Shown here piece after piece: positions 12,852 to 47,107 of a stretch of DNA of 64,000 nucleotides (its first letter is position 1; each line of letters begins with the position of its first letter). Position numbers and translations under genes: made by a program. Below the pieces are notes generated by a model. That model was not told where the DNA came from and did no database searches. It saw only the letters and a list, made by a program, of their open reading frames with translations. The stretch lies in IMG/VR virus record IMGVR_UViG_3300021255_000060, positions 62,961-126,960 of that record; one strand, 5' to 3'. Origin of the DNA: a virus. Its lineage: Duplodnaviria > Heunggongvirae > Uroviricota > Caudoviricetes.

Positions 12852-13589
12852 TTAATCCGATAAAACTTGTGGCCATTGAAAATAAAACGGTTCGTTTACA
12901 AAATCATAATTTTCGTCTAGAATACTAACATTTCTAATCCAACATCCGGGTTTATATTCTGTTAAATTGTGATTTCCAGAATGAATGTGACCGACTAATG
13001 TTAATTTTATATTTTTATCAGTAATTGCTTTTCCAAGAACATCGTTTCCCACTTGTAAAGTACCATCAGACCACATTGTTTTTTGCATAATAGTACCTAC
13101 ATCTTTTATATTTGGAGCATCGTGACTTATAAGAATATCTAGGTTATCTGGAATCTCAGAATATTTTTCTTTCAAAAATTGAGAATTTCCCATAAATGCC
13201 CAATTTCCAAATATTTTACAATACGGTGTACCAAATATACTTATATGTTCTTCTCCTGTAACAAAATCATACAATTCGTTTTCAAGATAAACAAGTCTAT
13301 TATTAGAACGATCCTTTAATGCAACAAGAAATATTTTCTTTCTATTAGGTTTCATTCTATACAAACCCAGATCATGGTTTCCAGCAATTAAAATTACTTT
13401 AGAATCATCATTTTTATACGGAAGGGAGATTATCCAATCCATAAATTCATCAAGATACCAACTTTCTGAATTAGCAGTGGAACTCTGATTATATAAATTT
13501 ACAACGTCACCTGGAAGAAGCATTAAATCGAATGGTTTTTCCACTTTTGGAAGAATTCCATGTAAATCACTTAATGCTATTATATCCAT
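12852..13589 (-). CDS. calcineurin-like metallophosphoesterase
   Basis: Motifs LSDLHG, LLPGDVVN, LIAGNHDLG and GHIHSGNH. Confidence 0.55.
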   Translation of the reverse strand: MDIIALSDLHGILPKVEKPFDLMLLPGDVVNLYNQSSTANSESWYLDEFMDWIISLPYKNDDSKVILIAGNHDLGLYRMKPNRKKIFLVALKDRSNNRLVYLENELYDFVTGEEHISIFGTPYCKIFGNWAFMGNSQFLKEKYSEIPDNLDILISHDAPNIKDVGTIMQKTMWSDGTLQVGNDVLGKAITDKNIKLTLVGHIHSGNHNLTEYKPGCWIRNVSILDENYDFVNEPFYFQWPQVLSD

Positions 13590-13590
13590 A

Positions 13591-15180
13591 TTATATTTCT
13601 TTAAAAACGTCTTTATCTACAATGATACAATTTGTAGAAATAAACATATTTAAAACACTAACTGCATTTTCAAAACTTAATCTATCTGCTTTAGTTGGAT
13701 TGATAATTCCGGACTCTAAAAAATTAACATACTGTTCTGTTTCCGCATTCCAAGATATGTTTTTATCAGGAAATACCTTCCTTCCAATTTCTTTAGGATC
13801 ATATCCGGCATTAGAAACAATTGTATCAAAAATAGAAGTAAGACTTTGTTTTACAATATCAATTCCACGTTGAATTTCGTCATCATCGTTACTTGGCATA
13901 GTTAGAAATGCTTTTAAATAAGATAGACCACCTCCTGCAACAATACCTTCTTCTAATGCTGCTTTTGTGGCACAAACTGCATCGTCAATCCTATCTTTTC
14001 TTTCTCTCATTTCTAATTCAGAATTACCTCCAACTCTTATTACACCAATTCCTCCATTAAGTCTAGCGATACGCTCCTTTAAAAATTTAATTTGAATTTC
14101 TTCTCCAGATTGTATTGACTTTAATTGTTCTTTTAAAGAATTTACTCTTTCTTCAATCATGCTTTTAGTTCCAGAACCTTCCAATATTGTAGTACTATCT
14201 TTTGTAATAATAACCTTGTTGCATGATCCAAGCATTGATCCATCTACTTTTTGAAGTTCTATTCCATTATCATATGTAGAAATTTGAGCTCCAGTTAATA
14301 TTGAAAGATCTTCTAGTATAAATTTTCTAAATTCTCCAAATGACGGGGCTTTAACAAGACAACTTTTTAAAATTCCCTGAAGATGATTAATTCTCATATT
14401 TTGAATGACTTCATCATCAAAATCTTGAGCAATTATTAATAAAGGACGATGATTTTTAGCACAATATTCTGCAGCAGGAACAATATCTCTCGTTAGCTGT
14501 ATTTTTTGATCAGTAATTAGAATTAATGGTTTTTCTAATACACATTCACCTTTTATTTGATCTGTAATAAACCAATGTGAAACAAACCCACGATCAAACT
14601 GCATACCTTTTACTATGTCGATACTTGTTTGATTATTTGAAGATTCTTCTACTGTTATAATTCCATCTTTTCCAATTTCTCTAAACGCATTAGATACAAG
14701 TTTACCTATAGTACTATCGTTATTAGAAGAAATAGAAGCTATTTTTTCAACATCTGATTCTTTTATATCAATAGAAGATTCTAATATAGTCTTTTTAACT
14801 CAATCTACAGCAATATTTATTCCTTGTTTTATAAGAGATATATTTTTAAACCCAGACAAATATTCGTTATATGCATTATTTACCATATTAAACGCAAGTA
14901 CTGTACTAGATGTAGTAGAATCTCCAACACTATTAACAGTATTTAATGCAGCTTGCTTTAATAATGTCGCTCCAACATTTTCAAATTTATCTTCTAAAAA
15001 TATATTTTTTGCTACAGTAACTCCGTCTTTAGTTACATGAGGAAGTCCATTACTATAATCGTCAATTATTACACACTGACCTTTTGGACCAAGTGTAGAA
15101 CCAACAGCTCTTGCTAATTTAGACATTCCTGTTATAAGACTTCCTTTAGCAAAATTATCAAATTTTAGTTCTTTAGCCAT
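13591..15180 (-). CDS. groEL: GroEL-type chaperonin (Cpn60), at least one in-frame TGA at 14800-14802
   Basis: N-terminal part MAKELKFDNFAKGSLITGMSKLARAVGSTLGPKGQCVIIDD...TKDGVTVAKNIFLEDKFENVGATLLKQAA...GDSTTSSTVLA. C-terminal part ...LNGGIGVIRVGGNSELEMRERKDRIDDAVCATKAALEEGIVAGGG. Both ORFs are in the same frame (ends 0 mod 3) and are joined by TGA. Confidence 0.7.
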
Positions 15181-16283
15181 TAAAATCCAATTTTCTTTCT
15201 TTTCTTAGTTTCGGAATATTCCGTCTTATCTGCATTATAGATTTCTGCTAAAGTCATAGGTTTAATTTCTTCTATACCAAGATCATATTTATCGTTAAGT
15301 TTCTGAACTTTTTCTTCCGATAAATCTCCAAATTCGTATTTAGCATAGCATCTTCCTTTTCTTAATAGAGCAGGATCAATTTTATTTACATCTGCATTAA
15401 ATGTACATATGAATTTAATATTCATAATATCAGACAAAAGTCCATCAGACATATTTAAAATATTACTAATTGCTCCATTAAACATGTTTTCACTTCTATC
15501 CATAAGAAGTTGTTCACAATCTTCAAGGACAAATACCGAATCCCTATTACTTACAAGAAATGATATAAAATCTGGATCAGATAATCTAGTTGCCATTGAA
15601 GTTGGTACAACAATATAATCTTTTGGATGTGTAGAACATAGATGCCGAATCATTGAAGTTTTGCCACTTCCCATTTTACCATAAAGGAGAATCAATCCAC
15701 TGTCTCGTTGATCTAAGAAAGAGAGAATGTCTTTATATACAGGTAAGAAGTCATCATTATAGTTTTCTTCCAAATTAATATTAACTTTCTTAATTTTAGA
15801 GTCCATTGTATAATAATCTCCTTGACTATAACAAATTAATTTTACTGTTGCTTCTTTTGGACGTTCTTCAACTTTAGGACAATTTTCCCACAATTTCAGA
15901 CAAAGTTTAGATGCTTCTTCTTCATTTGTACAATAACAACAAATCGAGTTGTCGTCAATTACAAATATTTTTTCATCTGAACAAAATATCCTAATATAAA
16001 TAGCCGAGTTTCCAACAATATATTGCAGTTCTCCACCTTCTTTATACTCTTGAATATCGTCTTCTTCTGATGTTGTACTAGATGAATGGTTTGTACTTCT
16101 AGATACTGATGTTATAGTAGGAATTATAGAGTATAACCAAGAATTATTGATTTTTGATAAGTCTAGATTAACGTCACGATTTACATATTGCACTTTATTT
16201 GGAATTTTTTTCCATAATTCTACAAACGCTTTCTCTGTAATGAAAGTTCCACTTAAATTATAAGCATTTAACCAATTTACCAT
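15180..16283 (-). CDS. AAA+ ATPase
   Basis: GLILLYGKMGSGKTS (Walker A), VFVLEDCEQL (Walker B), FICTFN (sensor 1), DPALLRKGRC (AAA second region of homology). Confidence 0.55.
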   Translation of the reverse strand: MVNWLNAYNLSGTFITEKAFVELWKKIPNKVQYVNRDVNLDLSKINNSWLYSIIPTITSVSRSTNHSSSTTSEEDDIQEYKEGGELQYIVGNSAIYIRIFCSDEKIFVIDDNSICCYCTNEEEASKLCLKLWENCPKVEERPKEATVKLICYSQGDYYTMDSKIKKVNINLEENYNDDFLPVYKDILSFLDQRDSGLILLYGKMGSGKTSMIRHLCSTHPKDYIVVPTSMATRLSDPDFISFLVSNRDSVFVLEDCEQLLMDRSENMFNGAISNILNMSDGLLSDIMNIKFICTFNADVNKIDPALLRKGRCYAKYEFGDLSEEKVQKLNDKYDLGIEEIKPMTLAEIYNADKTEYSETKKRKKIGF

Positions 16284-16582: not shown

Positions 16583-16732
16583 AGTTGAGGACTATTCAAT
16601 AAATTCCTTTTATAACATTCGTTCATTATTAAAAACGATACCACTGTTGGTAACGAATATATTATTACATATTCCATAATTTAGATAATTAAAGCCTCAG
16701 ATGCAAATTAGATAGCTTCTGAGGCGGTAGTG

Positions 16733-16803
16733 CGGGCTTGTAAAGACTCGAACTCTAACAAATGGTTTTGAAGACCATTGTCCTACCATTAAACGACAAG
16801 CCC
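16733..16803 (-). tRNA. suppressor-type tRNA with anticodon UCA (reads UGA; Trp-inserting by the paralogue evidence)
   Basis: Minus-strand sense GGGCTTG..AATGGTAGGAC.. anticodon stem ATGGT/ACCAT with loop CTTCAAA (U33, anticodon TCA, A37). T-arm TAGAG-TTCGAGT-CTTTA. Acceptor GGGCTTG/CAAGCCC. The D-arm is non-canonical. Confidence 0.5.
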
Positions 16804-20269: not shown

Positions 20270-20600
20270 AATCCAGAGTATTGCACCCTCTGGCATGGAG
20301 ATGAAACCTAACAGCACTCCTAGGAAATTACTCCGTGGTCTGTCGCCTACATGCACTGCAGTCAATTCGGCTCAAGGGCTCTGGTTTGTCTCAATTTAAT
20401 ATAGCCCTTTGTTATAGTGACCCCGACGAGGCTCGAACTCGTGACCCCAACATTAGAACCGTTAACGGGACTTGCACCCGTGCCTCACTTGTTTCCCAAG
20501 TGTTTTCCACTACTCGAATTCTAACGGTTTGGTTCGTTACGGTGAACCACTCCTTATAAAGTGTTGTGCTCTACCAACTGAGCTACGAGGTCTTTCCACA
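20270..20600 (-). ncRNA. GC-richer ORF-free structured region with tRNA-like pieces (unresolved)
   Basis: Contains a canonical tRNA 5' half GACCTCGTAGCTCAGTTGGTAGAGCAC (sense of 20563-20592), a TTCGAGC T-loop-like hairpin at 20432-20448, the direct repeat GTGACCCC twice, and the hairpin CCAGAG..CTCTGG. I could not fold a complete cloverleaf by hand. Confidence 0.3.
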
Positions 20601-20976: not shown

Positions 20977-20999
20977 AAACCTTAAATTTTTTAAATTTG

Positions 21000-21072
21000 T
21001 GATACTACCGGAATTAGAACCAGAGGCCCATACATTAAAAGTATATTGCTCTACCAACTGAGCTACAGGACC
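21000..21072 (-). tRNA. tRNA-Lys (UUU)-like, imperfect stems
   Basis: Sense GGTCCTG-TA-GCTCAGTTGGTAGAGC-A-ATATA-CTTTTAA-TGTAT.. The T-stem and acceptor carry G-U pairs and mismatches. Confidence 0.4.
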
Positions 21073-21077
21073 AATGG

Positions 21078-21150
21078 TGACTCCAGATGGATTCAAACCA
21101 TCGACCCACAGCTTAGAAGGCTGTTGCTCTATTCGCTGAGCTATGGAGCC
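21078..21150 (-). tRNA. tRNA-Arg (UCU)
   Basis: Sense GGCTCCA-TA-GCTCAGCGAATAGAGC-A-ACAGC-CTTCTAA-GCTGT-GGGTC-GATGG-TTTGAAT-CCATC-TGGAGTC. Confidence 0.6.
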
Positions 21151-24762: not shown

Positions 24763-24963
24763 TTAATGGTTTAAAGTATCGTGTAATTCTTGCAAGATCC
24801 GCAATTGATTATCCACTTTAACTTTTATAGAAAAATATGAAAACCAGTTTGGACTAAAAGAACTAGCTTTAAGTAAATTTTTATTCAAATCTTCTATAAT
24901 TTTTCTAGTATCTTTTATAGATGATTGAACATTTTCCTTTAATTTATCTATTGCTGTTTCCAT
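24763..24963 (-). CDS. hypothetical protein
   Basis: 66-aa ORF. Confidence 0.2.
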   Translation of the reverse strand: METAIDKLKENVQSSIKDTRKIIEDLNKNLLKASSFSPNWFSYFSIKVKVDNQLRILQELHDTLNH

Positions 24964-25547
24964 AATTCAATTTGAGAATTAATCTTATTGTTTAATTCTT
25001 CCCAAGAAATAGGAAAATAATTGTTGTTGTCTACTCCAACATCATATTGTGTTGGATATAGATATTGAAGTCTTCCAATATCTGCACCAGTAGAACCTGG
25101 TTGACTATGAACATGTCCAAATGCTTGAATTGCATAGTTATTACCATATAGTACCGAATCACTATGGGCAAAGCATAAAAATGGAAAGTGATTTAAATAA
25201 ACTGTTCTTCCATCAACAGTAATTCTTGCTTGATAAGCAACATCTTCAAACAAATGATACAAAGATTGTTGAAGATTCTTATCATCATGATTACCTTTTA
25301 TGAGAATTATATGCCCATTTAATTGTTCTCTAATACTTTTCCACTTAGGTGCACCAGCAAAACAAAAATCACCAAGATGAAAAATAGTATCATCTTGTTT
25401 AACAACCGAATTCCAATTATCAATTAATGCTTGATCATGTTCTTCAATTGTATTCCAAGGACGATTACAAAATCGTAGAATATTATTATGACAAAAATGA
25501 GAATCGGATGTAAACCACAATCCATCTCCTGTATATTTAGTTATCAT
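24948..25547 (-). CDS. metallophosphoesterase
   Basis: Motifs FTSDSHFCH, IFHLGDFCF, IKGNHD and FGHVHS. Confidence 0.5.
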   Translation of the reverse strand: MITKYTGDGLWFTSDSHFCHNNILRFCNRPWNTIEEHDQALIDNWNSVVKQDDTIFHLGDFCFAGAPKWKSIREQLNGHIILIKGNHDDKNLQQSLYHLFEDVAYQARITVDGRTVYLNHFPFLCFAHSDSVLYGNNYAIQAFGHVHSQPGSTGADIGRLQYLYPTQYDVGVDNNNYFPISWEELNNKINSQIELWKQQ

Positions 25548-27676: not shown

Positions 27677-28006
27677 ATTCTAATAGACATTGTTTTAAAA
27701 ATTCTTCAATTACTTTTTTATTATTACCATCTGCGTTCTTAAGAAGCATACGATAAAAGTTGATATAGGTAATCAACGTTGTTTTAGCTTGTCCTTGAAA
27801 AATCATAATAAATTAAAAGTCTTATTTCATCAGCCGGAGGAAAGACTTTAAGAAACCCGGAAGTCCGTGAGTGTAGGATTTGTTTTGTATTATGGCCAAG
27901 TACCTACTTTCCTATAGTTAGACAACCAAAATGGAAATTAAAGTCGCTATAGATGGAATTTGCCACTCCCCCACATTTCCTTTTAAAAGTCTAATGCTAC
28001 TTTGGC

Positions 28007-28078
28007 TTAACATGTTGGATTTGAACCAACGTATTCAAGTTCCTGATACTTGCGTGATAACCACTTCACTAATGTTAG
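28007..28078 (-). tRNA. class I tRNA with apparent anticodon CAG (atypical for bacterial tRNA-Leu, which has a long variable arm)
   Basis: Anticodon arm CAAGT-ATCAGGA-ACTTG. D-arm GTGA-AGTGGTTA-TCAC. T-arm GTTGG-TTCAAAT-CCAAC. Short variable loop AATAC. Discriminator G. Confidence 0.4.
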
Positions 28079-28149
28079 ATAGATCTAAATTATTGTAAGT
28101 AGCATAAAATATATTTCTAAAGACACTTAAATCTTTGCTGGAACCATTC

Positions 28150-28228
28150 AGCTATTTGACCTAAAAGATGGCAGTCAAAACCGGATTCGAACCGATATAT
28201 AAGAAATTATTTTATTGTAAGTGTCTTA
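28150..28228 (-). ncRNA. tRNA-like element: ACTTACAA motif, TAnnTTTG-like motif (TTTCTTATATATCGG), T-arm ATCGG-TTCGAAT-CCGGT, then TTTTGACTG-CCA followed by a hairpin
   Basis: Lies immediately downstream of the terminator hairpin of the vWA gene. No 5' acceptor partner was found within 100 nt. Confidence 0.3.
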
Positions 28229-28245
28229 TAACCATTTCGTTTTAC

Positions 28246-28292
28246 AAATTTAGGGATTATTTCTGAAAAATCCAAATTTAATCCCTAAATTT
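28246..28292 (-). terminator. stem-loop terminator of the vWA gene
   Basis: Sense ATTTAGGGATTA-AATTTGGATTTTTCAGAAA-TAATCCCTAAAT, a perfect 12-bp stem directly after the stop codon. Confidence 0.4.
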
Positions 28293-28294
28293 TT

Positions 28295-30121
28295 TTAAAG
28301 AACATTCTGTCGGACTGGTTCATATCTGTTACTCCTATAGAGAGATTGAAGTGGAGTATAAACATCAAAGATGTCAATATCCTTAAAATTGACAAGCATT
28401 TGCTCAATCAATTCAATCTTTCCAGGAATATACATTACCTGATCAAGATCTGCAAAATGATTTACATCATAATTGTTATAGTTCTTGATCTCAATAATTA
28501 CAAGATATGGAGTAAATCCAAGATACTGCTGACATTTATGCTGGAATTCCAGTACGCTTTCCTTAGCGTTCCAACTAGAGTTTATATCACCATCAGAACA
28601 GATAACCCATACAGGATATTCAGCAAGAGCATCCTTAATCTCAGGATCATTCAATCCAATCCTCTTGATTTCATCAGTCATGCCTCCAAGATTGGTTCCA
28701 CCTCCCTTAAAGGCAGCATTGAGATACTTAGAGATTCTCTCATAGTTCTCATACAAACTAAGTTCTGGAACAACAAACGGTTCAGGCTTAATTTGAATTG
28801 CAGGCTGACGATGCCAGAACGAATTAACTTGATTGTGTCCCTGCAAATCAATAGCAGAAAGGAATCTACCCTGATTTGCAAACATTCCAATCAAATTACG
28901 AGCAGTATCATCTGGATTCTTAACAAGAAGAATTGATGCTAGGAACGCTGCAAAATTGAATGGAGCACCTTGCATAGATCCAGATTCATCAATGATTGTC
29001 AAGAAGTTAAATGGAAGGTTTACCTTATTGGCAAAAGACTCCAAACGGAGTTTATCAACATTTCCATTAAGAATATCTTGATAGAGCTCCTTAAATGTTG
29101 TTGCACCAACAGTAACTTTTGCTTCTTTTTTAACTTTCTCAAGACGAACCTGTTCTTCTACAGATGCTGTACCCTGACGAACCTTTTCTTCAAGAACACG
29201 CTGTTCTTTCTGAGCCTCATCTTTATAACGTTCCCAGTTTTCAAACCAAGTCTTCAGTTTAGGCCACTTAAGACCAGATTCAGGTTTATTCTTCTGATTA
29301 TATGAATAGAACACTCTATTCTTTACACGATATCTTGCTTGTGCAGGAAGTTTGTTGAGCCAGTTAGTAAACTCTACCTGATCAAACTCATTAATCTTTC
29401 CAGAGGAGAATAGAACAGACTCAAGATCAGAGTTATACTGCTTACGCCACATTCGATATCCTCTAAAGTTGGCATAATTGCCAGCAAAGATATAATCCCA
29501 TCCAAGCTTATTAGAAATATCCTTAAGGAACTGAGCCTTTTCCATCATATTCCTATAAGTATCAGTAAGCATCTGTTTGTGACCAGAACGCTTACCAAGA
29601 CGAGGAAGAGTCAAGAACTTTGCTACAAGCATCTTATTAAAAGGATTTGAACCATTAATAATACTTACAACATAGTCTGCAAGGTCATTCCTATAAGTCG
29701 GATTGGAAAGCATACGATAAACAGCAGAAACTCTATAAGTTCCAGGGATAGTTTTTACACGATTCCTGAAAAGATGATCAAAGCAAGTATACTCATTAAA
29801 GAGTCCAGCATTAAGAAATACTTTAAACTGTTCATAGTCGTTCTGAATCATCCAATTCATAATCGTAAAGAATCCTTCACGATTCGACTGTCCACCAGTA
29901 TCTTTCTTCTTTCCACGAAAGATATTGTGTTCACGATTAGTAATATCTCCAATAGAGAAGAGAAGAGAATAGAACATCTCTTTCTTTACTTTATCAGATT
30001 TTACTTCATTATATGCAGCAGTGATTGCAGCATCATTAATATTATGTCCCTGGAAAAGAGACAAACAAGCCTTTAGTCCGTAGAACGGATTTTCGTTCTT
30101 CTTGTTAAATTCGATTTGCAT
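28295..30121 (-). CDS. von Willebrand factor A (MIDAS) domain protein with a roughly 370-aa helical N-terminal region; Ro60/TROVE-like architecture suspected
   Basis: 608-aa intact ORF. NFLTIIDESGSMQG (DxSGS MIDAS) lies at about residues 378-383, the same position as the DVSASM MIDAS in 60-kDa Ro proteins. Coiled-coil EEQVRLEKVKKEAK. Confidence 0.45.
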   Translation of the reverse strand: MQIEFNKKNENPFYGLKACLSLFQGHNINDAAITAAYNEVKSDKVKKEMFYSLLFSIGDITNREHNIFRGKKKDTGGQSNREGFFTIMNWMIQNDYEQFKVFLNAGLFNEYTCFDHLFRNRVKTIPGTYRVSAVYRMLSNPTYRNDLADYVVSIINGSNPFNKMLVAKFLTLPRLGKRSGHKQMLTDTYRNMMEKAQFLKDISNKLGWDYIFAGNYANFRGYRMWRKQYNSDLESVLFSSGKINEFDQVEFTNWLNKLPAQARYRVKNRVFYSYNQKNKPESGLKWPKLKTWFENWERYKDEAQKEQRVLEEKVRQGTASVEEQVRLEKVKKEAKVTVGATTFKELYQDILNGNVDKLRLESFANKVNLPFNFLTIIDESGSMQGAPFNFAAFLASILLVKNPDDTARNLIGMFANQGRFLSAIDLQGHNQVNSFWHRQPAIQIKPEPFVVPELSLYENYERISKYLNAAFKGGGTNLGGMTDEIKRIGLNDPEIKDALAEYPVWVICSDGDINSSWNAKESVLEFQHKCQQYLGFTPYLVIIEIKNYNNYDVNHFADLDQVMYIPGKIELIEQMLVNFKDIDIFDVYTPLQSLYRSNRYEPVRQNVL

Positions 30122-30272
30122 GTTACTTCTTTATTTCAACATTTGTCACAAAGACCACAACGGTCAAATAAATTATAAATCGTTCAATATATAGGCTTAG
30201 AGGAGGTCATTACAACCTCCTCTCCACACTCTATACATTTGTACGTATGTGTATAAGATAACATTCTATAGA

Positions 30273-30698
30273 TTACTGCAATGCAGCAATTTGATCTTCG
30301 ATTTCCTTAATTCGATCTTCAGGTGTCTTCTGAGATTCTTTAAGCTCTTCAAGCTTGGAATTAAGTACAGCTAGTTCATGCTCTTTCTTCTGTTCCTCTT
30401 CTTTAGCAAGTTTATAACCAAGTGCCAGATTAACAAATTCCCTCTTGAAGGTAAGATTTTTAATTGCTTCTTCATTAGGATTCTTAACCCATTCATCTTC
30501 AAGAGAAAGAGCATTAATCTGTTTATCCAAGGATTTAATCAAAGATCGAAGTGAATTGATTGTAAGGTTCTTAACAATATCAATTGCTGAATACTGCTGA
30601 CCCATAGGTCCAGTAACAACAATATCATTCATTATTGCATATGCAATTTTGTCTTTAAGCTGAGACATGTGCTCTTCAGTAAAATTAATCTTTCCCAT
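30273..30698 (-). CDS. coiled-coil protein
   Basis: 141-aa ORF. Confidence 0.3.
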   Translation of the reverse strand: MGKINFTEEHMSQLKDKIAYAIMNDIVVTGPMGQQYSAIDIVKNLTINSLRSLIKSLDKQINALSLEDEWVKNPNEEAIKNLTFKREFVNLALGYKLAKEEEQKKEHELAVLNSKLEELKESQKTPEDRIKEIEDQIAALQ

Positions 30699-31452
30699 AG
30701 ATTTTTAATTCTTTAGTTTCTGTATTAAATTCAAATATTTCTCTACTATCTATACAATATGCAGGAACATGATTAGTATTTCTTATTGTAGAAATATTTA
30801 TAAATATTCCTTGATGTTCTAACTGCGTATGTCCAAAAATCTGAATAACTGAAAATGGATTTAACATTTCAGATGCATCACACCAAAATGGTCCACCATA
30901 TGGTGCTTCTCCACCTCTAATGTATCCAATGTCAAATATGGTAGATCTAAAGTTTGTATACCACATCTTTTTAACTAATCCATCATAAGAACATTCTTTG
31001 TTCCATTCAGAATTAATCCAATCCAATAATCCATTTAAGTCTACATCATCTGGAATAAATTTTTCTCTTTTATTTGCATCTATCCAACCTTTACTTATTC
31101 CAGCATGACTAAATATAACTTCAGTAAATTGTTTAAATGGTTTAAATAGTTCTATATTTTCTCTAAACAATGCATGTGCATCATTATAGAATTTCTTATT
31201 AAATCTAGAACAACCATAATCTTCCCAAATATAATGACAATCATGATTACCTGCTAATAGTGTCACATTGCTATTATTCTTAGCAAAATCAATAATTTCT
31301 TTAAGATTTGCTAATCCATCTTCAAAGGAGCATCCTTCATATGAATATGGATCAAGATAATCTCCAAGAAAAACAATTGGAGTATCTTTTACTTCCAATA
31401 CAGGTTTGTAAAAATCCCGACAATGAATGTCTGGGCATATAATAAGCTTCAT
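30685..31452 (-). CDS. PPP-family Ser/Thr phosphatase-like metallophosphoesterase (lambda phosphatase-like)
   Basis: Motifs ICPDIHC, FLGDYLDPYSYEG (GDxVDRG-like) and LAGNHDCHY (GNHE-like). Confidence 0.5.
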   Translation of the reverse strand: MKLIICPDIHCRDFYKPVLEVKDTPIVFLGDYLDPYSYEGCSFEDGLANLKEIIDFAKNNSNVTLLAGNHDCHYIWEDYGCSRFNKKFYNDAHALFRENIELFKPFKQFTEVIFSHAGISKGWIDANKREKFIPDDVDLNGLLDWINSEWNKECSYDGLVKKMWYTNFRSTIFDIGYIRGGEAPYGGPFWCDASEMLNPFSVIQIFGHTQLEHQGIFINISTIRNTNHVPAYCIDSREIFEFNTETKELKIYGKD

Positions 31453-31487
31453 ATTTTTATTTTTTTATTTTAATTAGTCAGCAGGCT

Positions 31488-31588
31488 GGGACTCGAACCC
31501 AGATCACGGCAATCCAAAGAGCAAACTTGAGTTTGTAAGTATCTTATAATATACTTGATACGTGTCCTAACCATTAGACGACCTGCTA
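31488..31588 (-). ncRNA. about 100-nt tRNA-like RNA: canonical acceptor, D-arm and T-arm, but an aberrant 60-nt central region containing the ACTTACAA motif
   Basis: Sense 5' TAGCAGG-TC-GTC-TAATGGTTAG-GAC ... GATACTTACAAACTCAAGTTTG ... CTGGG-TTCGAGT-CCCAG-CCTGCTG. No standard 7-nt anticodon loop could be drawn. Either an intron-containing tRNA or a tRNA mimic. Confidence 0.4.
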
Positions 31589-31598
31589 AATATTTAGT

Positions 31599-32381
31599 TT
31601 ATTTTAAATCTCCGAGACTAATAAACGTATTTGATCCAGTTCCCATAAAAGTTGGAACTTTCCCATCCCATTTTTCAATCCACATCTGCTGAAGGATTTC
31701 TTTAGTCAATGCACGATTCTTAAGTTCATTAGCTTCTTTCTCTGCCTGTGCAGCAACAACTAGCTTTTCTGCTTCTGCTTTAGCAAGTGCTACTTCATTC
31801 TGAGCACGCATAGCATTCTGTTCAGCCTGAACTTTACGATTGATTGATTCCTCAATACTACTAGGATATTTCAATCCACTAGTAAGCTGCTCAAGATGGA
31901 ATCCTTCTTTCTCCAAAGATTCAGATAGATAAGACTCGATATTCTTTTCAAATTCAGCACGCTTAGAAACCAATTCATCTGTAGTATACTGATTTAACTG
32001 AACACGAAATGCATCACGAATATAATTAAAAAGAACACCTTCAATAATTTTATCAAGTTTCAGTCTATATTTCTTAAATACAACTGGAGACTGTCCTTCA
32101 TTAATTCGCAGAGAAATAGTAGGATCTACAATAAACTCTGGACCATCCTTTGCATTAATTGTAAATTCAGGATAATCAATTGTCTGAACAAAAGTAGGAT
32201 ACTCGTATACTTTAGTAGTAAACGGATTAAAGAACACCCATCCAGTGACAGATGCTACATCATCAACACCTTTATTAGATCCATAAAGGTGTACTTTCAT
32301 ACCTTCACAACCTGCATCAATGCGAGTACAACTAGAAATAGCAATAATAATTGTAGTAAGAATAATAATAAACTTTTTCAT
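31599..32381 (-). CDS. SPFH/Band-7 domain lipoprotein
   Basis: Signal peptide with lipobox (..AISSC). C-terminal ..AEQNAMRAQNEVALAKAEAEKLVVAAQAEKEANE. Confidence 0.45.
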   Translation of the reverse strand: MKKFIIILTTIIIAISSCTRIDAGCEGMKVHLYGSNKGVDDVASVTGWVFFNPFTTKVYEYPTFVQTIDYPEFTINAKDGPEFIVDPTISLRINEGQSPVVFKKYRLKLDKIIEGVLFNYIRDAFRVQLNQYTTDELVSKRAEFEKNIESYLSESLEKEGFHLEQLTSGLKYPSSIEESINRKVQAEQNAMRAQNEVALAKAEAEKLVVAAQAEKEANELKNRALTKEILQQMWIEKWDGKVPTFMGTGSNTFISLGDLK

Positions 32382-32969: not shown

Positions 32970-33542
32970 TTATATTTCATTTTCAAATCTAAAATTCATC
33001 ACCGCATCAGCAAGGTCGTTTCCGTCCGGGCAAAAAGCCATGAGCATGTGAGCAACAAGACCGGCAGACATCCCGCTATGCCCCTGGTCCATAAAAGCTT
33101 TGTAAGCTTTCCGAATCCGTTTATCATAGGACATGCTTTCGTCACGCATAATCTTGCAAAGGTCAAGAGTGTAATCCAGCTCCATTCCGTGATAGAGGTC
33201 TCCAAGGCGGATAGGGACAATTTTATCCCAATAGTCATACTGGTCTTCAAGGATTACACCACGGGCTCTCTCGCAATAGACAGGAACAAGGCTCGGAATG
33301 CTATCTTTATGCTCTTTTTCCTTACGTTCATATTCATCACGCCAATCCTGCACTTCCTTATCATACTGTCCCTTGGTCTTACCCATAATCTTCATATAGG
33401 CTTCATCAAGAGTGTCCGTAGAGAGGATTTCATGGCCGTTGAACTTACCAAAGCAAGTATCTTCGCATTCTGCGCTCTCTTTAAGGAGCCTCTTCCAAGC
33501 GCTGTCAATATTCTCGCCTGGATAAAATTCAATCTCTTTCAT
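32970..33542 (-). CDS. hypothetical protein (markedly GC-richer gene)
   Basis: 190-aa ORF. Local GC is visibly higher than the backbone. Confidence 0.35.
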   Translation of the reverse strand: MKEIEFYPGENIDSAWKRLLKESAECEDTCFGKFNGHEILSTDTLDEAYMKIMGKTKGQYDKEVQDWRDEYERKEKEHKDSIPSLVPVYCERARGVILEDQYDYWDKIVPIRLGDLYHGMELDYTLDLCKIMRDESMSYDKRIRKAYKAFMDQGHSGMSAGLVAHMLMAFCPDGNDLADAVMNFRFENEI

Positions 33543-38674: not shown

Positions 38675-38968
38675 CTACAATACAATTAGTTTCGTAGCTT
38701 TGCTCTTCCTATCAATAATGATTGCATAGATTGGCTTTCTATTAAATCGCTGATACACTTTATGTCTAACTACAGACTGTTTGTTAGACATATAAATTTC
38801 TCCATCATATTCAGCAAAATATTCAATTCGAATCTTTCCTGCCTTATTGATAGACTGTTCTTCAAAGAACGTTATACTTGCAGTATCTTTAAGAACAAGT
38901 GTATCTTTCTGAGCATATCCAATCAAACACACAAATAAGGTAATAATAGTAATGATAAACTTTTTCAT
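38675..38968 (-). CDS. secreted protein (signal peptide)
   Basis: 97 aa. N-terminal MKKFIITIITLFVCLIGYA. Confidence 0.3.
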   Translation of the reverse strand: MKKFIITIITLFVCLIGYAQKDTLVLKDTASITFFEEQSINKAGKIRIEYFAEYDGEIYMSNKQSVVRHKVYQRFNRKPIYAIIIDRKSKATKLIVL

Positions 38969-47039: not shown

Positions 47040-47107
47040 AGTCCTACCGCAGAATCGAACTGCGGTTTACTCCAAGGAGCTGTTCTAGCCATCTGAACTA
47101 GTAGGAC
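47040..47107 (-). ncRNA. tRNA-like element lacking a normal anticodon arm
   Basis: Acceptor GTCCTAC/GTAGGAC. D-arm GTTC-AGATGGCTA-GAAC. T-arm CGCAG-TTCGATT-CTGCG. Only a short GCTCC-TTG-GAGT hairpin sits where the anticodon arm should be. Confidence 0.3.

Follow-up and report, generated by a model that had tools for sequence, protein, structure and literature searches.

A recurrent 9-bp RNA module marking the breaks in unusual tRNA genes of a phage clade that encodes a Ro60-like vWA protein

In the phage DNA studied here, a stretch of 64,000 nucleotides referred to below as the window, and in related loci, tRNA genes of unusual organization are broken at sites marked by a reusable RNA module. 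The finding points to an undescribed phage tRNA-processing or ribonucleoprotein (RNP) system rather than to a standard Ro/Y-RNA pair. The module is a 9-bp helix (RWGNYACUU/AAGURNCWY, then ACAA) with covarying stems: its inner half (ACUU/AAGU) is fixed and its outer half covaries. Formed by the transcript ends, it closes circularly permuted genes (called permuted below) in which the acceptor stem is a hairpin; capped by a loop, it interrupts tRNA genes that are otherwise normal, in most cases within the 5' anticodon-stem strand. It also flanks complete tRNAs on both sides or precedes a tRNA by a few nucleotides as an independent hairpin. Window coordinates given in descending order denote the minus strand.

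In the window and 11 related loci, stems in which 8 or all 9 bp form number 59 on the coding strand and 4 on the other. An exact partner of its own accompanies 43 of 124 motifs (2% in a cross-control), and the variable 5-mer takes 16 distinct forms. Of 45 distinct stems, 24 have a mismatch at the tenth position, mostly T.T, whereas 11 are paired there. The motif ACTTACAA is found 13 times (3.7 expected), a count attained in no shuffle, and all 21 strict T-arm matches of the window lie on the minus strand, eight of them outside the tRNAs found by ARAGORN. This strand bias and the excess of ACTTACAA over shuffles exclude a chance origin of the tRNA-like elements and the motif. When 17 permuted cassettes were aligned, RNAalifold revealed compensatory changes in 15 of 20 pairs; acceptor and terminal stems covary, and acceptor, T and terminal stems are kept paired by compensatory change. 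As a means of telling RNA from DNA, a comparison of G.U with A.C mismatches was abandoned, internal mismatches being too scarce to decide. A literature search for the motif string returned unrelated papers only.

The initial annotation had drawn attention to three tRNA-like RNAs around a vWA gene, and all three are members of the module family. The first, described as a T-arm/CCA element, is real and larger than had been noted, spanning 28227-28120 as a permuted tRNA-like cassette without an anticodon arm. It begins with the 5' module strand AAGACACUU (28227-28219), ACAA (28218-28215) and a T-arm (28196-28180), continues with the 3' acceptor strand followed by G and CCA (28179-28169) and a 7-nt linker, and ends with the 5' acceptor strand (28161-28155), a D-arm (28152-28137) and the 3' module strand AAGUGUCUU (28128-28120). 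Its minimum free energy fold is exactly this structure (z = -2.6), and the orthologue at L005:12029-12139 has T and acceptor stems with compensatory changes. The second, a complete class-I tRNA with a CAG anticodon and encoded CCA (28078-28003), was recognized by both ARAGORN and Rfam (55.8 bits). It lies within a module (28105-27994) whose 5' strand AUGCUACUU (28105-28097) is followed by ACAA and a 14-nt spacer and whose 3' strand AAGUAGCAU (28002-27994) abuts the CCA; the orthologous cassettes of loci L001 and L005 possess different yet complementary stems (ACGACACUU/AAGUGUCGU). The third, the proposed tRNA mimic upstream of the vWA gene, was likewise confirmed as a non-permuted tRNA-like gene (31588-31478) that folds with a 7-bp acceptor stem (UAGCAGG/CCUGCUG), a D-arm and a T-arm (31502-31486). 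Between its D-arm and a degenerate anticodon region, at the expected start of the anticodon arm, it carries a loop-capped module hairpin (ACUUACAA at 31540-31533). Homologous genes with capped modules are present in locus L003.

In the permuted cassettes the 3' half precedes the 5' half, the acceptor strands come in reversed order and can pair, and the parts follow each other as T-arm, looped acceptor (often encoding CCA) and D-arm, which is the layout of YrlA RNAs. Four permuted elements (five with a one-base shift) have an encoded N-CCA at the 3' end of the acceptor, compared with about 0.15 expected. When the module was removed in silico, 11 of 39 elements regained a perfect anticodon arm (0.7 expected), as judged by a strict anticodon-arm criterion and a null of mismatched halves; this test was adopted because ARAGORN accepts nearly any anticodon arm if the other arms fit and is thus non-discriminating at junctions. 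ARAGORN also missed every permuted or module-interrupted gene described here. Eight of the 11 restored arms have their junction after nucleotides 27-30, and examples of restored arms, with the junction at the slash, are ACG/GG-CUUGUAA-CCCGU (L003:6399), CG/GCA-CUUUUAA-UGCCG (L005) and ACG/GC-UUUGUAA-GCCGU (L009). Further permuted cassettes of the window are split in the anticodon stem (21266-21157; AUGUAACUU ... AAGUUACAU) or between anticodon arm and T-arm (16928-16812, T-arm at 16902-16886; AUGUUACUU ... AAGUAACAU), the former representing the permuted form of the gene found unpermuted at L003:6399. No canonical anticodon arm resulted from module removal in 28227-28120 or 31588-31478, and the existence of cassettes with a missing or degenerate anticodon arm, respectively, counts against the explanation that we favor below. 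Group I introns of bacterial and phage tRNA genes likewise interrupt the anticodon region; the modules, by contrast, sit in the anticodon stem, are far too small (20-60 nt) and gave no match to Rfam introns or ribozymes. A group I intron reading was rejected because of this size and the missing Rfam matches.

The vWA gene (30121-28295) encodes a protein of 608 amino acids whose DxSxS MIDAS, noted previously, is complete (D378-x-S380-x-S382, T476, D510); these residues and M383 are invariant in the 64 relatives compared. An AF2 model (pLDDT 88.8) shows a helical N-terminal region of about 370 amino acids followed by a C-terminal alpha/beta vWA domain. The Ro60-like layout claimed earlier is thus borne out as far as a helical N-terminus and a vWA domain with MIDAS are concerned, but the N-terminal domain matches no recognizable family, and TROVE (Pfam PF05731, a ring of HEAT-like repeats) was not detected in it by any test. 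The vWA domain was matched over its whole length to the Ro60 type by hhalign (probability 85%, E 7e-6). A match to vWA_Ro60, weak in each case, was given by two of 64 relatives. The Ro60 family phrog_850 is the sole PHROG match of the protein, and Ro60 proteins are the nearest full-length structures. Searches of the PDB with phmmer and of 50,697 GenBank phages with tblastn gave no match, the latter result meaning that the protein has no annotated relative in that collection.

The vWA gene is the last in a string of genes headed by that of a calcineurin-like metallophosphoesterase (31452-30685), which is located upstream of the vWA gene in L001 too; the tRNA-like gene 31588-31478 lies 26 nt upstream of this string. 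Directly upstream of the vWA gene is a conserved gene for a coiled-coil protein of 141 amino acids (30698-30273) that shares 35% identity with its L003 equivalent, and this position is also occupied in other related loci. The vWA leader (30265-30121) contains a degenerate module-like pair, AUGUUAUCUUAUACA (30264-30250) and AAGAAGUAACA (30131-30121), which ends at the start codon; this window copy was judged by eye only, and the leaders of relatives contain exact ACUUACAA.

Ro60/Rsr proteins and YrlA-class Y RNAs occur together in bacteria, mycobacteriophages and the Thermus phage phiLo. The system described here resembles them in its helical N-terminus plus C-terminal vWA domain with MIDAS and in the side-by-side arrangement of the genes. 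YrlA RNAs consist of a terminal stem formed by the 5' and 3' ends that encloses a T-arm, a looped acceptor-like stem and a D-arm (PMC4201824), and the same architecture is evident in single folds and in the RNAalifold covariation of the phage cassettes. In Mycobacterium smegmatis, YrlA is cut by RNase P and receives CCA. The proposal of a Ro/Y-RNA-type RNP is partly supported: it agrees with the layout of RNAs and protein but not with Rfam class or TROVE. Covariance models for Y RNA and YrlA (RF00019, RF02553) gave no match at E <= 10 in the region 27700-31800, and the best YrlA match (21233-21170, within the permuted cassette 21266-21157) scored 39.1 bits, the gathering score being 69, and covered only model positions 23-88; the stem portion of the model was unmatched, and the conserved Ro-binding sequence is absent from the terminal stem. 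Moreover, the stem motif (ACUU/AAGU plus ACAA) bears no relation to the Ro-binding helix or to GNCGAAN0-1G, it is present in many copies per genome, and the same stem brackets true tRNAs and interrupts anticodon stems.

Several observations connect the module with the vWA protein. In seven of 11 loci the 120 nt preceding the vWA start contain an exact motif, compared with four of 351 other ORFs, one of these four being the metallophosphoesterase gene at the head of the vWA string in the window. When IMG/VR was searched for the module pattern and nothing else, 11 stretches were retrieved; the short flanks of five include the vWA gene, and another stretch derives from a contig already known to carry it. 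We consider the vWA protein a likely but unproven partner of the module-marked tRNAs; their co-occurrence could also reflect shared ancestry inside one phage clade.

Judging from sequence, we tentatively favor a joint reading, which we hold to be possible rather than probable, in which the module marks split or permuted tRNAs and the Ro-like protein serves as a module-binding scaffold. The helix would be recognized at the RNA level, with the result that the tRNAs are matured, joined, stabilized or gated. By one route, excision or end-joining might be followed by RNase P cleavage and 3' maturation at the acceptor loop, in the way known for permuted tRNAs elsewhere; by another, the helix might keep the two pieces of a tRNA joined, in the manner of two-piece tmRNA. 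With less assurance, we speculate that the vWA protein binds the module as the scaffold of a Ro/Y-RNA-like RNP, because of its Ro60-like layout, the location of its gene on the border of the cassette array and the module in its own leader. The conserved 141-amino-acid protein and the metallophosphoesterase would be its partners, and the protein would probably autoregulate its own mRNA.

Alternatively, the module may be an RNA-level signal of split and permuted tRNAs on which other enzymes of host or phage act, the vWA protein being merely co-located and co-regulated, for example as a cochaperone or adaptor that works with an AAA+ ATPase in assembly. We regard this as rather doubtful, even though the N-terminal domain matches nothing and an intact MIDAS usually binds protein ligands. 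Pairs of MoxR-type AAA+ ATPases and vWA proteins are documented in jumbo phages and, more generally, phage and archaeal virus pairs share with our protein a vWA domain with MIDAS and a long N-terminal extension. An AAA+ gene adjacent to the vWA gene, suggestive of a chaperone-type pairing, is found in L003, L004 and L016; it belongs, however, to PF00004 and not to the MoxR families, and it is absent from the window, L001, the P0038 contig and most loci. The AAA-like ORF of the window (15180-16283) is just 24% identical to the vWA-adjacent AAA+ protein. The most distant vWA locus, L015, encodes the protein, and an inverted-repeat scan disclosed no consistent module there. By contrast, MoxR-vWA systems involve no tRNA-like RNAs, the vWA gene is almost alone among protein genes in following the module, and Ro60 is both the nearest structure and the only PHROG family matched.

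A more far-reaching version of the joint reading is that phages of this clade run a protein-dependent maturation of hairpin-interrupted and permuted tRNA genes that is functionally similar to archaeal or eukaryal tRNA splicing, where the vWA protein would recognize the helix and, along with the phosphoesterase and a putative nuclease and ligase, excise or join it. We consider this unlikely. The permuted, split and intron-containing tRNAs of archaea and Cyanidioschyzon merolae do share with the phage genes a 3' half that comes first, transcript ends that pair at the break, breaks located either in the variable region or within the anticodon arm (stem or loop), and the coexistence of intron-containing and permuted versions of one tRNA. 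There, however, a bulge-helix-bulge is cut by a splicing endonuclease, whereas the phage genes feature a helix of the 9-mer plus ACAA; as judged by eye, distances to the helix vary (3-9 nt/11-18 nt) and no bulge-helix-bulge is formed at the junctions, and neither an endonuclease nor an RNA ligase was identified within the window. These last points weigh against the joint reading as well. Two-piece tmRNA of alpha-proteobacteria and cyanobacteria, in which the intervening loop is excised and two base-paired RNA chains function, provides a bacterial precedent for a permuted tRNA-like gene, yet it is one housekeeping gene that includes an mRNA-like portion, as opposed to many tRNA-sized cassettes with one module.

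In archaea and a few algae, tRNA genes that are permuted, split or interrupted by something other than a group I intron are a known curiosity; in bacteria they are, to our knowledge, represented by two-piece tmRNA only, and a literature search yielded no report of them in phages. If dozens of such genes, with one sequence-specific helix in common, are present in abundant uncultivated phages, standard tRNA finders undercount phage tRNAs, and phages may gate tRNA activity via RNA processing, which bears on the switching-on of stop-codon recoding. Protein-dependent maturation, if it takes place, could enable a phage to time the activation of tRNAs, including suppressors for such recoding. A Ro60-like protein may also have gained a new RNA partner, offering a tractable model for Ro-type RNPs and tRNA-like RNAs. 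The idea is directly testable in vitro because the module is short and defined.

That ACTTACAA and its flanks serve mainly as a phage-specific promoter, used by a phage RNA polymerase or σ factor for the tRNA cassettes and the vWA operon, with a secondary role of the complement in transcript-end protection or at the DNA level, seems quite improbable to us. The motif is part of a compact, strand-specific conserved block of about 18 nt (AWGWY-ACUUACAA-WAWYA) without a -35-like signal upstream, it is located 17-25 nt upstream of the vWA ATG in L006-L009, and distant relatives (26-28% identity) possess a lineage-specific variant, ACUUAGAA. A promoter does not explain, however, the covarying complement of 43 of 124 copies or the fixed helix length of 9 bp, and, among the copies of one genome, the block is free to vary at positions -5 to -1. 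Loop-capped copies inside tRNA genes, both strands of which must be co-transcribed, and stem covariation led us to reject a promoter alone as the main explanation. Bacteroides phage DAC16, considered as a relative devoid of the vWA gene, proved too distant (first 50 kb with 23% GC, no tRNAs and no motif enrichment).

Selfish palindromic DNA, either MITE-like or homing-associated, or debris of tandem tRNA duplication with decaying pseudogenes as the tRNA-like pieces, is a very improbable source of the cassettes. Cassette order and content do vary among close relatives, indicating that cassettes shuffle, the L003 array contains a faint HNH_3 match, and some cargos have no anticodon arm; yet the ends of transposons have a conserved sequence and show no pairwise covariation, and such an origin is at odds with the compensatory pairing of acceptor, T and terminal stems, CCA at the exact acceptor end, the precise restoration of anticodon arms upon joining and the strict strand bias. 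Least plausible is a highly diverged genuine Ro60 orthologue with YrlA-class Y RNAs as in Deinococcus and Salmonella, where the Y RNA tethers Ro to a nuclease in RNA quality control.

The window contains further copies of the module. A stand-alone hairpin with a 9-bp stem, ACAA and a 37-nt loop (26980-26922) ends 9 nt upstream of tRNA-Gln (26912-26841), an arrangement matched at L001:15842-15903. Another module with 8 of 9 bp and a structured cargo of 121 nt (20107-19965) begins 8 nt after tRNA-Val, and a further stand-alone hairpin (GAUACUU ACAA ... AAGUAUC) is located at 40262-40205.

The octamer ACTTACAA, read from the sequence as common to both odd elements flanking the gene of the 608-aa vWA protein, has 13 copies in the window where 3.7 would be expected, most of them near tRNAs on the coding strand. 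Each coding-strand copy completes, on the 3' side, a strand of 9 nt that has its perfect complement 40-130 nt further downstream. The five outer positions of this strand vary from copy to copy, as in the pairs ATGTTACTT/AAGTAACAT, ATGTAACTT/AAGTTACAT, ATGCTACTT/AAGTAGCAT, and AAGACACTT/AAGTGTCTT. In the window and 11 loci carrying relatives of the protein, 59 stems of this module (a 9-bp helix followed by ACAA, with cargo or a loop between its strands) lie on the coding strand and four on the opposite one. An exact partner of its own was found for 43 of 124 motifs, compared with 2% when variable parts were swapped between copies. The helix mostly ends at 9 bp: of 45 distinct stems, 24 have a mismatch, chiefly T.T, at the tenth position. 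AWGWY-ACTTACAA-WAWYA is the conserved block, and conservation is absent further upstream. Covariation, fixed helix length and the presence of capped copies within genes argue, with good though not full confidence, that the module works as folded RNA. A possible variant at 38752-38905 (minus strand), upstream of tRNA-Ile(UAU), has a perfect 9-bp stem (GATACACTT ... AAGTGTATC), a 136-nt loop and GTTC in place of ACAA after the 5' strand.

The cargo falls into distinct classes. Members of class 1 are permuted tRNA or tRNA-like genes in which the T-arm comes first, then the acceptor 3' strand, a short linker, the acceptor 5' strand and the D-arm; some also have an anticodon arm. Folding of single sequences gives the same order. 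RNAalifold applied to 17 such cassettes yielded a terminal stem, an acceptor hairpin and the T-arm, and 15 of the 20 pairs show compensatory changes. N-CCA directly follows the acceptor 3' strand in four class 1 elements (five if a one-base shift is allowed), as opposed to about 0.15 expected. The T-arm/CCA element noted at 28150-28228 in the initial annotation is real and belongs to such a permuted cassette, 28227-28120 (minus strand), which carries GCCA. Class 2 comprises whole tRNAs inside a module. Here belongs the odd tRNA(CAG) reported beside the vWA gene, which is likewise genuine (28078-28003 within 28105-27994); the L001 and L005 orthologues are enclosed in the same way, by a stem of different yet complementary sequence. 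Class 3 consists of stand-alone hairpins with short A/U-rich loops, which usually begin 1-8 nt after the preceding tRNA and end 3-9 nt before the 5' end of the next. Class 4 shows the reverse topology, a loop-capped helix inside an otherwise normal tRNA gene, between D-arm and anticodon region. The tRNA mimic described upstream of the vWA gene (31488-31588) turned out to be such a gene (31588-31478, minus strand), and at least seven more are present in L003, L006, L008, and L009.

The module-enclosed orthologues 28003-28078, L005:16258-16329 and L001:16580-16650 have the body in common, but the anticodon is UGG in L005 and CAG in the other two. Hence the "class-I tRNA-Leu(CAG)" resembles a Pro-type tRNA whose anticodon has been switched. 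Long module-bounded stretches at L006:15308-15594 and L008:13394-13578 begin inside a tRNA-like gene and reach past it by about 230 and 110 nt, respectively. ARAGORN also predicted tmRNA genes within the tRNA/cassette arrays at L008:19133-19527 and L010:8686-9196.

The permuted cassette 21266-21157 and the unpermuted L003:6399 agree in sequence on either side of the module and, judged by these flanks, are one tRNA in two gene topologies. In a removal test, the sequence after nt 26 of each orphan tRNA-like element was joined to that preceding the variable loop at every possible position, and a perfect anticodon arm was defined as five Watson-Crick pairs, U33 and purine 37, needing both sides of the junction. 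Such an arm was restored in 11 of 39 elements, with 0.7 predicted from a null of mismatched halves; eight of the 11 junctions lie after nt 27-30, in the anticodon stem, and the restored anticodons are UGU, UUU, GUG, CAU, AAG, and AAU. ARAGORN was dropped as scorer for being too permissive. The likeliest role of the module would be to mark where a split or permuted tRNA is broken and to hold the break together for maturation. The module might be excised or the ends joined, after which RNase P and 3' processing would act on the acceptor loop; alternatively, the product might be a two-piece tRNA analogous to two-piece tmRNA, which is among the closest known systems. Permuted or intron-containing tRNA genes of archaea and red algae resemble those described here in topology but differ in signal and host, and searching the literature for such tRNAs in phages gave nothing relevant. 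The module system is widespread, sharply defined and directly testable.

Two tRNA-like genes of the window deserve separate mention. The tRNA-Arg(UCU) gene at 20417-20592 (minus strand) has, in the intron mode of ARAGORN, a 102-nt insert in the anticodon loop that holds a T-arm-like hairpin (CACGGG UGCAAGU CCCGU) and a CACUUG...CAAGUG hairpin; the insert is below the size of a group I intron, and no Rfam model matches it. The element at 47040-47107 (minus strand), missed by ARAGORN and Rfam alike, combines a perfect 7-bp acceptor stem (GUCCUAC/GUAGGAC), a D-arm and a T-arm (47064-47048), with only 17 nt between the two arms, where a normal anticodon arm cannot fit.

Assignment of the RNAs next to the vWA gene to the Y RNA/YrlA families is not borne out by Rfam, a search of 27700-31800 having returned neither family even at E <= 10. 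The YrlA model matched 21233-21170 with 39 bits (gathering score, 69), covering the tRNA-like core and leaving the stem unmatched; this is expected because YrlA has the same T/acceptor-loop/D order as the permuted cassettes (PMC4201824). A second weak match (21013-21130, minus strand; 27 bits) joins the T-arm of tRNA-Arg to the D-arm of the adjacent tRNA(UUA) and was discarded as a dimeric-tRNA false positive of the kind the YrlA authors warn of (PMC4201824). Members lacking a usable anticodon arm, such as 28227-28120 and 31588-31478, may be tRNA mimics in their own right, at a Y-RNA-like end of the spectrum.

For the 608-aa protein (ORF 28295-30121, minus strand), the 90%-identity clusters contain over 1,200 relatives at E <= 0.001, and the 50%-identity representatives gave 158 matches, mostly of 590-680 aa; tblastn found none in 50,697 GenBank phage records. 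The MIDAS of the protein is complete, with D378, S380, S382, M383, T476, and D510 invariant across 64 diverse family members. The AF2 model (pLDDT 88.8, pTM 0.83) has a helical region of about 370 residues ahead of a vWA fold, and in Foldseek its best and only full-length match is Rsr of D. radiodurans (E 5e-5, TM about 0.3). No significant Pfam match was obtained with the protein itself; VWA_2 was matched by 17 of the 64 relatives and vWA_Ro60 weakly by two, and TROVE is absent among the best 25 of the 41 Pfam families that they matched. Ro60 proteins of phages are already known, and the sole PHROG match (phrog_850; E 4e-4, residues 335-554) is to a family which, given its match to mammalian Ro60 at E 9e-69, is the phage Ro60 family by sequence. 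Against PDB sequences the family profile gave weak matches confined to the MIDAS region, three of six being TROVE/Ro60 entries. In profile-profile comparisons the vWA domain alone aligned, with a probability of 57% to vertebrate Ro60 and of 85% to a mixed bacterial-plus-vertebrate Ro60 alignment. Taken together, these comparisons uphold the Ro60-like layout and a Ro60-type vWA domain, but not the proposed TROVE-like N-terminal region, the helical domain matching no recognised family, and the protein is therefore not called a TROVE member: it is like Ro60/YrlA RNPs in layout, not in family. AAA+-vWA chaperone pairs, also among the closest known systems, are a rival model for it; a PF00004 AAA+ gene is additionally present in L003, L004, and L016.

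In all loci examined, the tRNA/cassette array has the vWA gene at its edge, and in five (the window, L001, L003, L005, and L009) no more than about 80 nt separate the vWA stop codon from the start of a cassette. Exact ACTTACAA is found 17-88 nt upstream of the vWA start in seven of 11 loci as compared with four of 351 other ORFs, one of the four being the window phosphoesterase gene that heads the gene string ending in vWA. Since in several loci the start codon or first codons coincide in part with the complementary strand, the vWA leader could fold into the module helix. A search of IMG/VR by module pattern alone retrieved 11 stretches; the vWA gene is present in the short flanks of five, and one more comes from a contig on which it was already known. 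The distant relatives L014 and L016 (26-28% identity) have a variant module, ACTTAGAA-TTAAACAA, with covarying stems flanking tRNAs, including a UCA suppressor; no module was seen in L015 (25% identity, 45% GC). These associations are consistent with a cognate protein-RNA pair and autoregulation, and would result equally from transcriptional control that is common to a single phage clade. That the vWA protein is the partner of the module is a tentative inference, somewhat less likely than not.

Directly upstream of the vWA gene lies a conserved gene for a 141-aa coiled-coil protein (35% identity to the L003 copy), preceded by that of a calcineurin-like phosphoesterase (30685-31452, minus strand). 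The latter would fit an RNA end-healing context as described for phage RNA repair sets; a nuclease or ligase was not identified in the window. Two further, separate calcineurin-like metallophosphoesterase genes (12852-13589 and 24948-25547, both minus strand) lie within or beside the tRNA-rich region.

The window is phage-like DNA of 33% GC, and relatives of the 608-aa protein are found on metagenomic contigs of 160-180 kb. With a GroEL-like gene that shares about 41% identity with counterparts in Bacteroides, Flavobacterium, Cellulophaga, and Vibrio phages, the host probably belongs to the Bacteroidota. In the interval from about 16 to 45 kb, the minus strand carries the genes and 18 ARAGORN tRNAs, two of which have suppressor-type anticodons: UCA, reading UGA (16732-16803), and UUA, reading UAA (20999-21073), both on the minus strand. 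From about 46.5 to 56.6 kb no standard-code ORF reaches 150 aa, which, together with these tRNAs, suggests stop-codon recoding of a gene block. Finally, a 190-aa ORF at 32970-33542 (minus strand) shows a sub-threshold Pfam match (E 7e-5; 23 bits, cutoff 27) to the Thoeris inhibitor Tad3.
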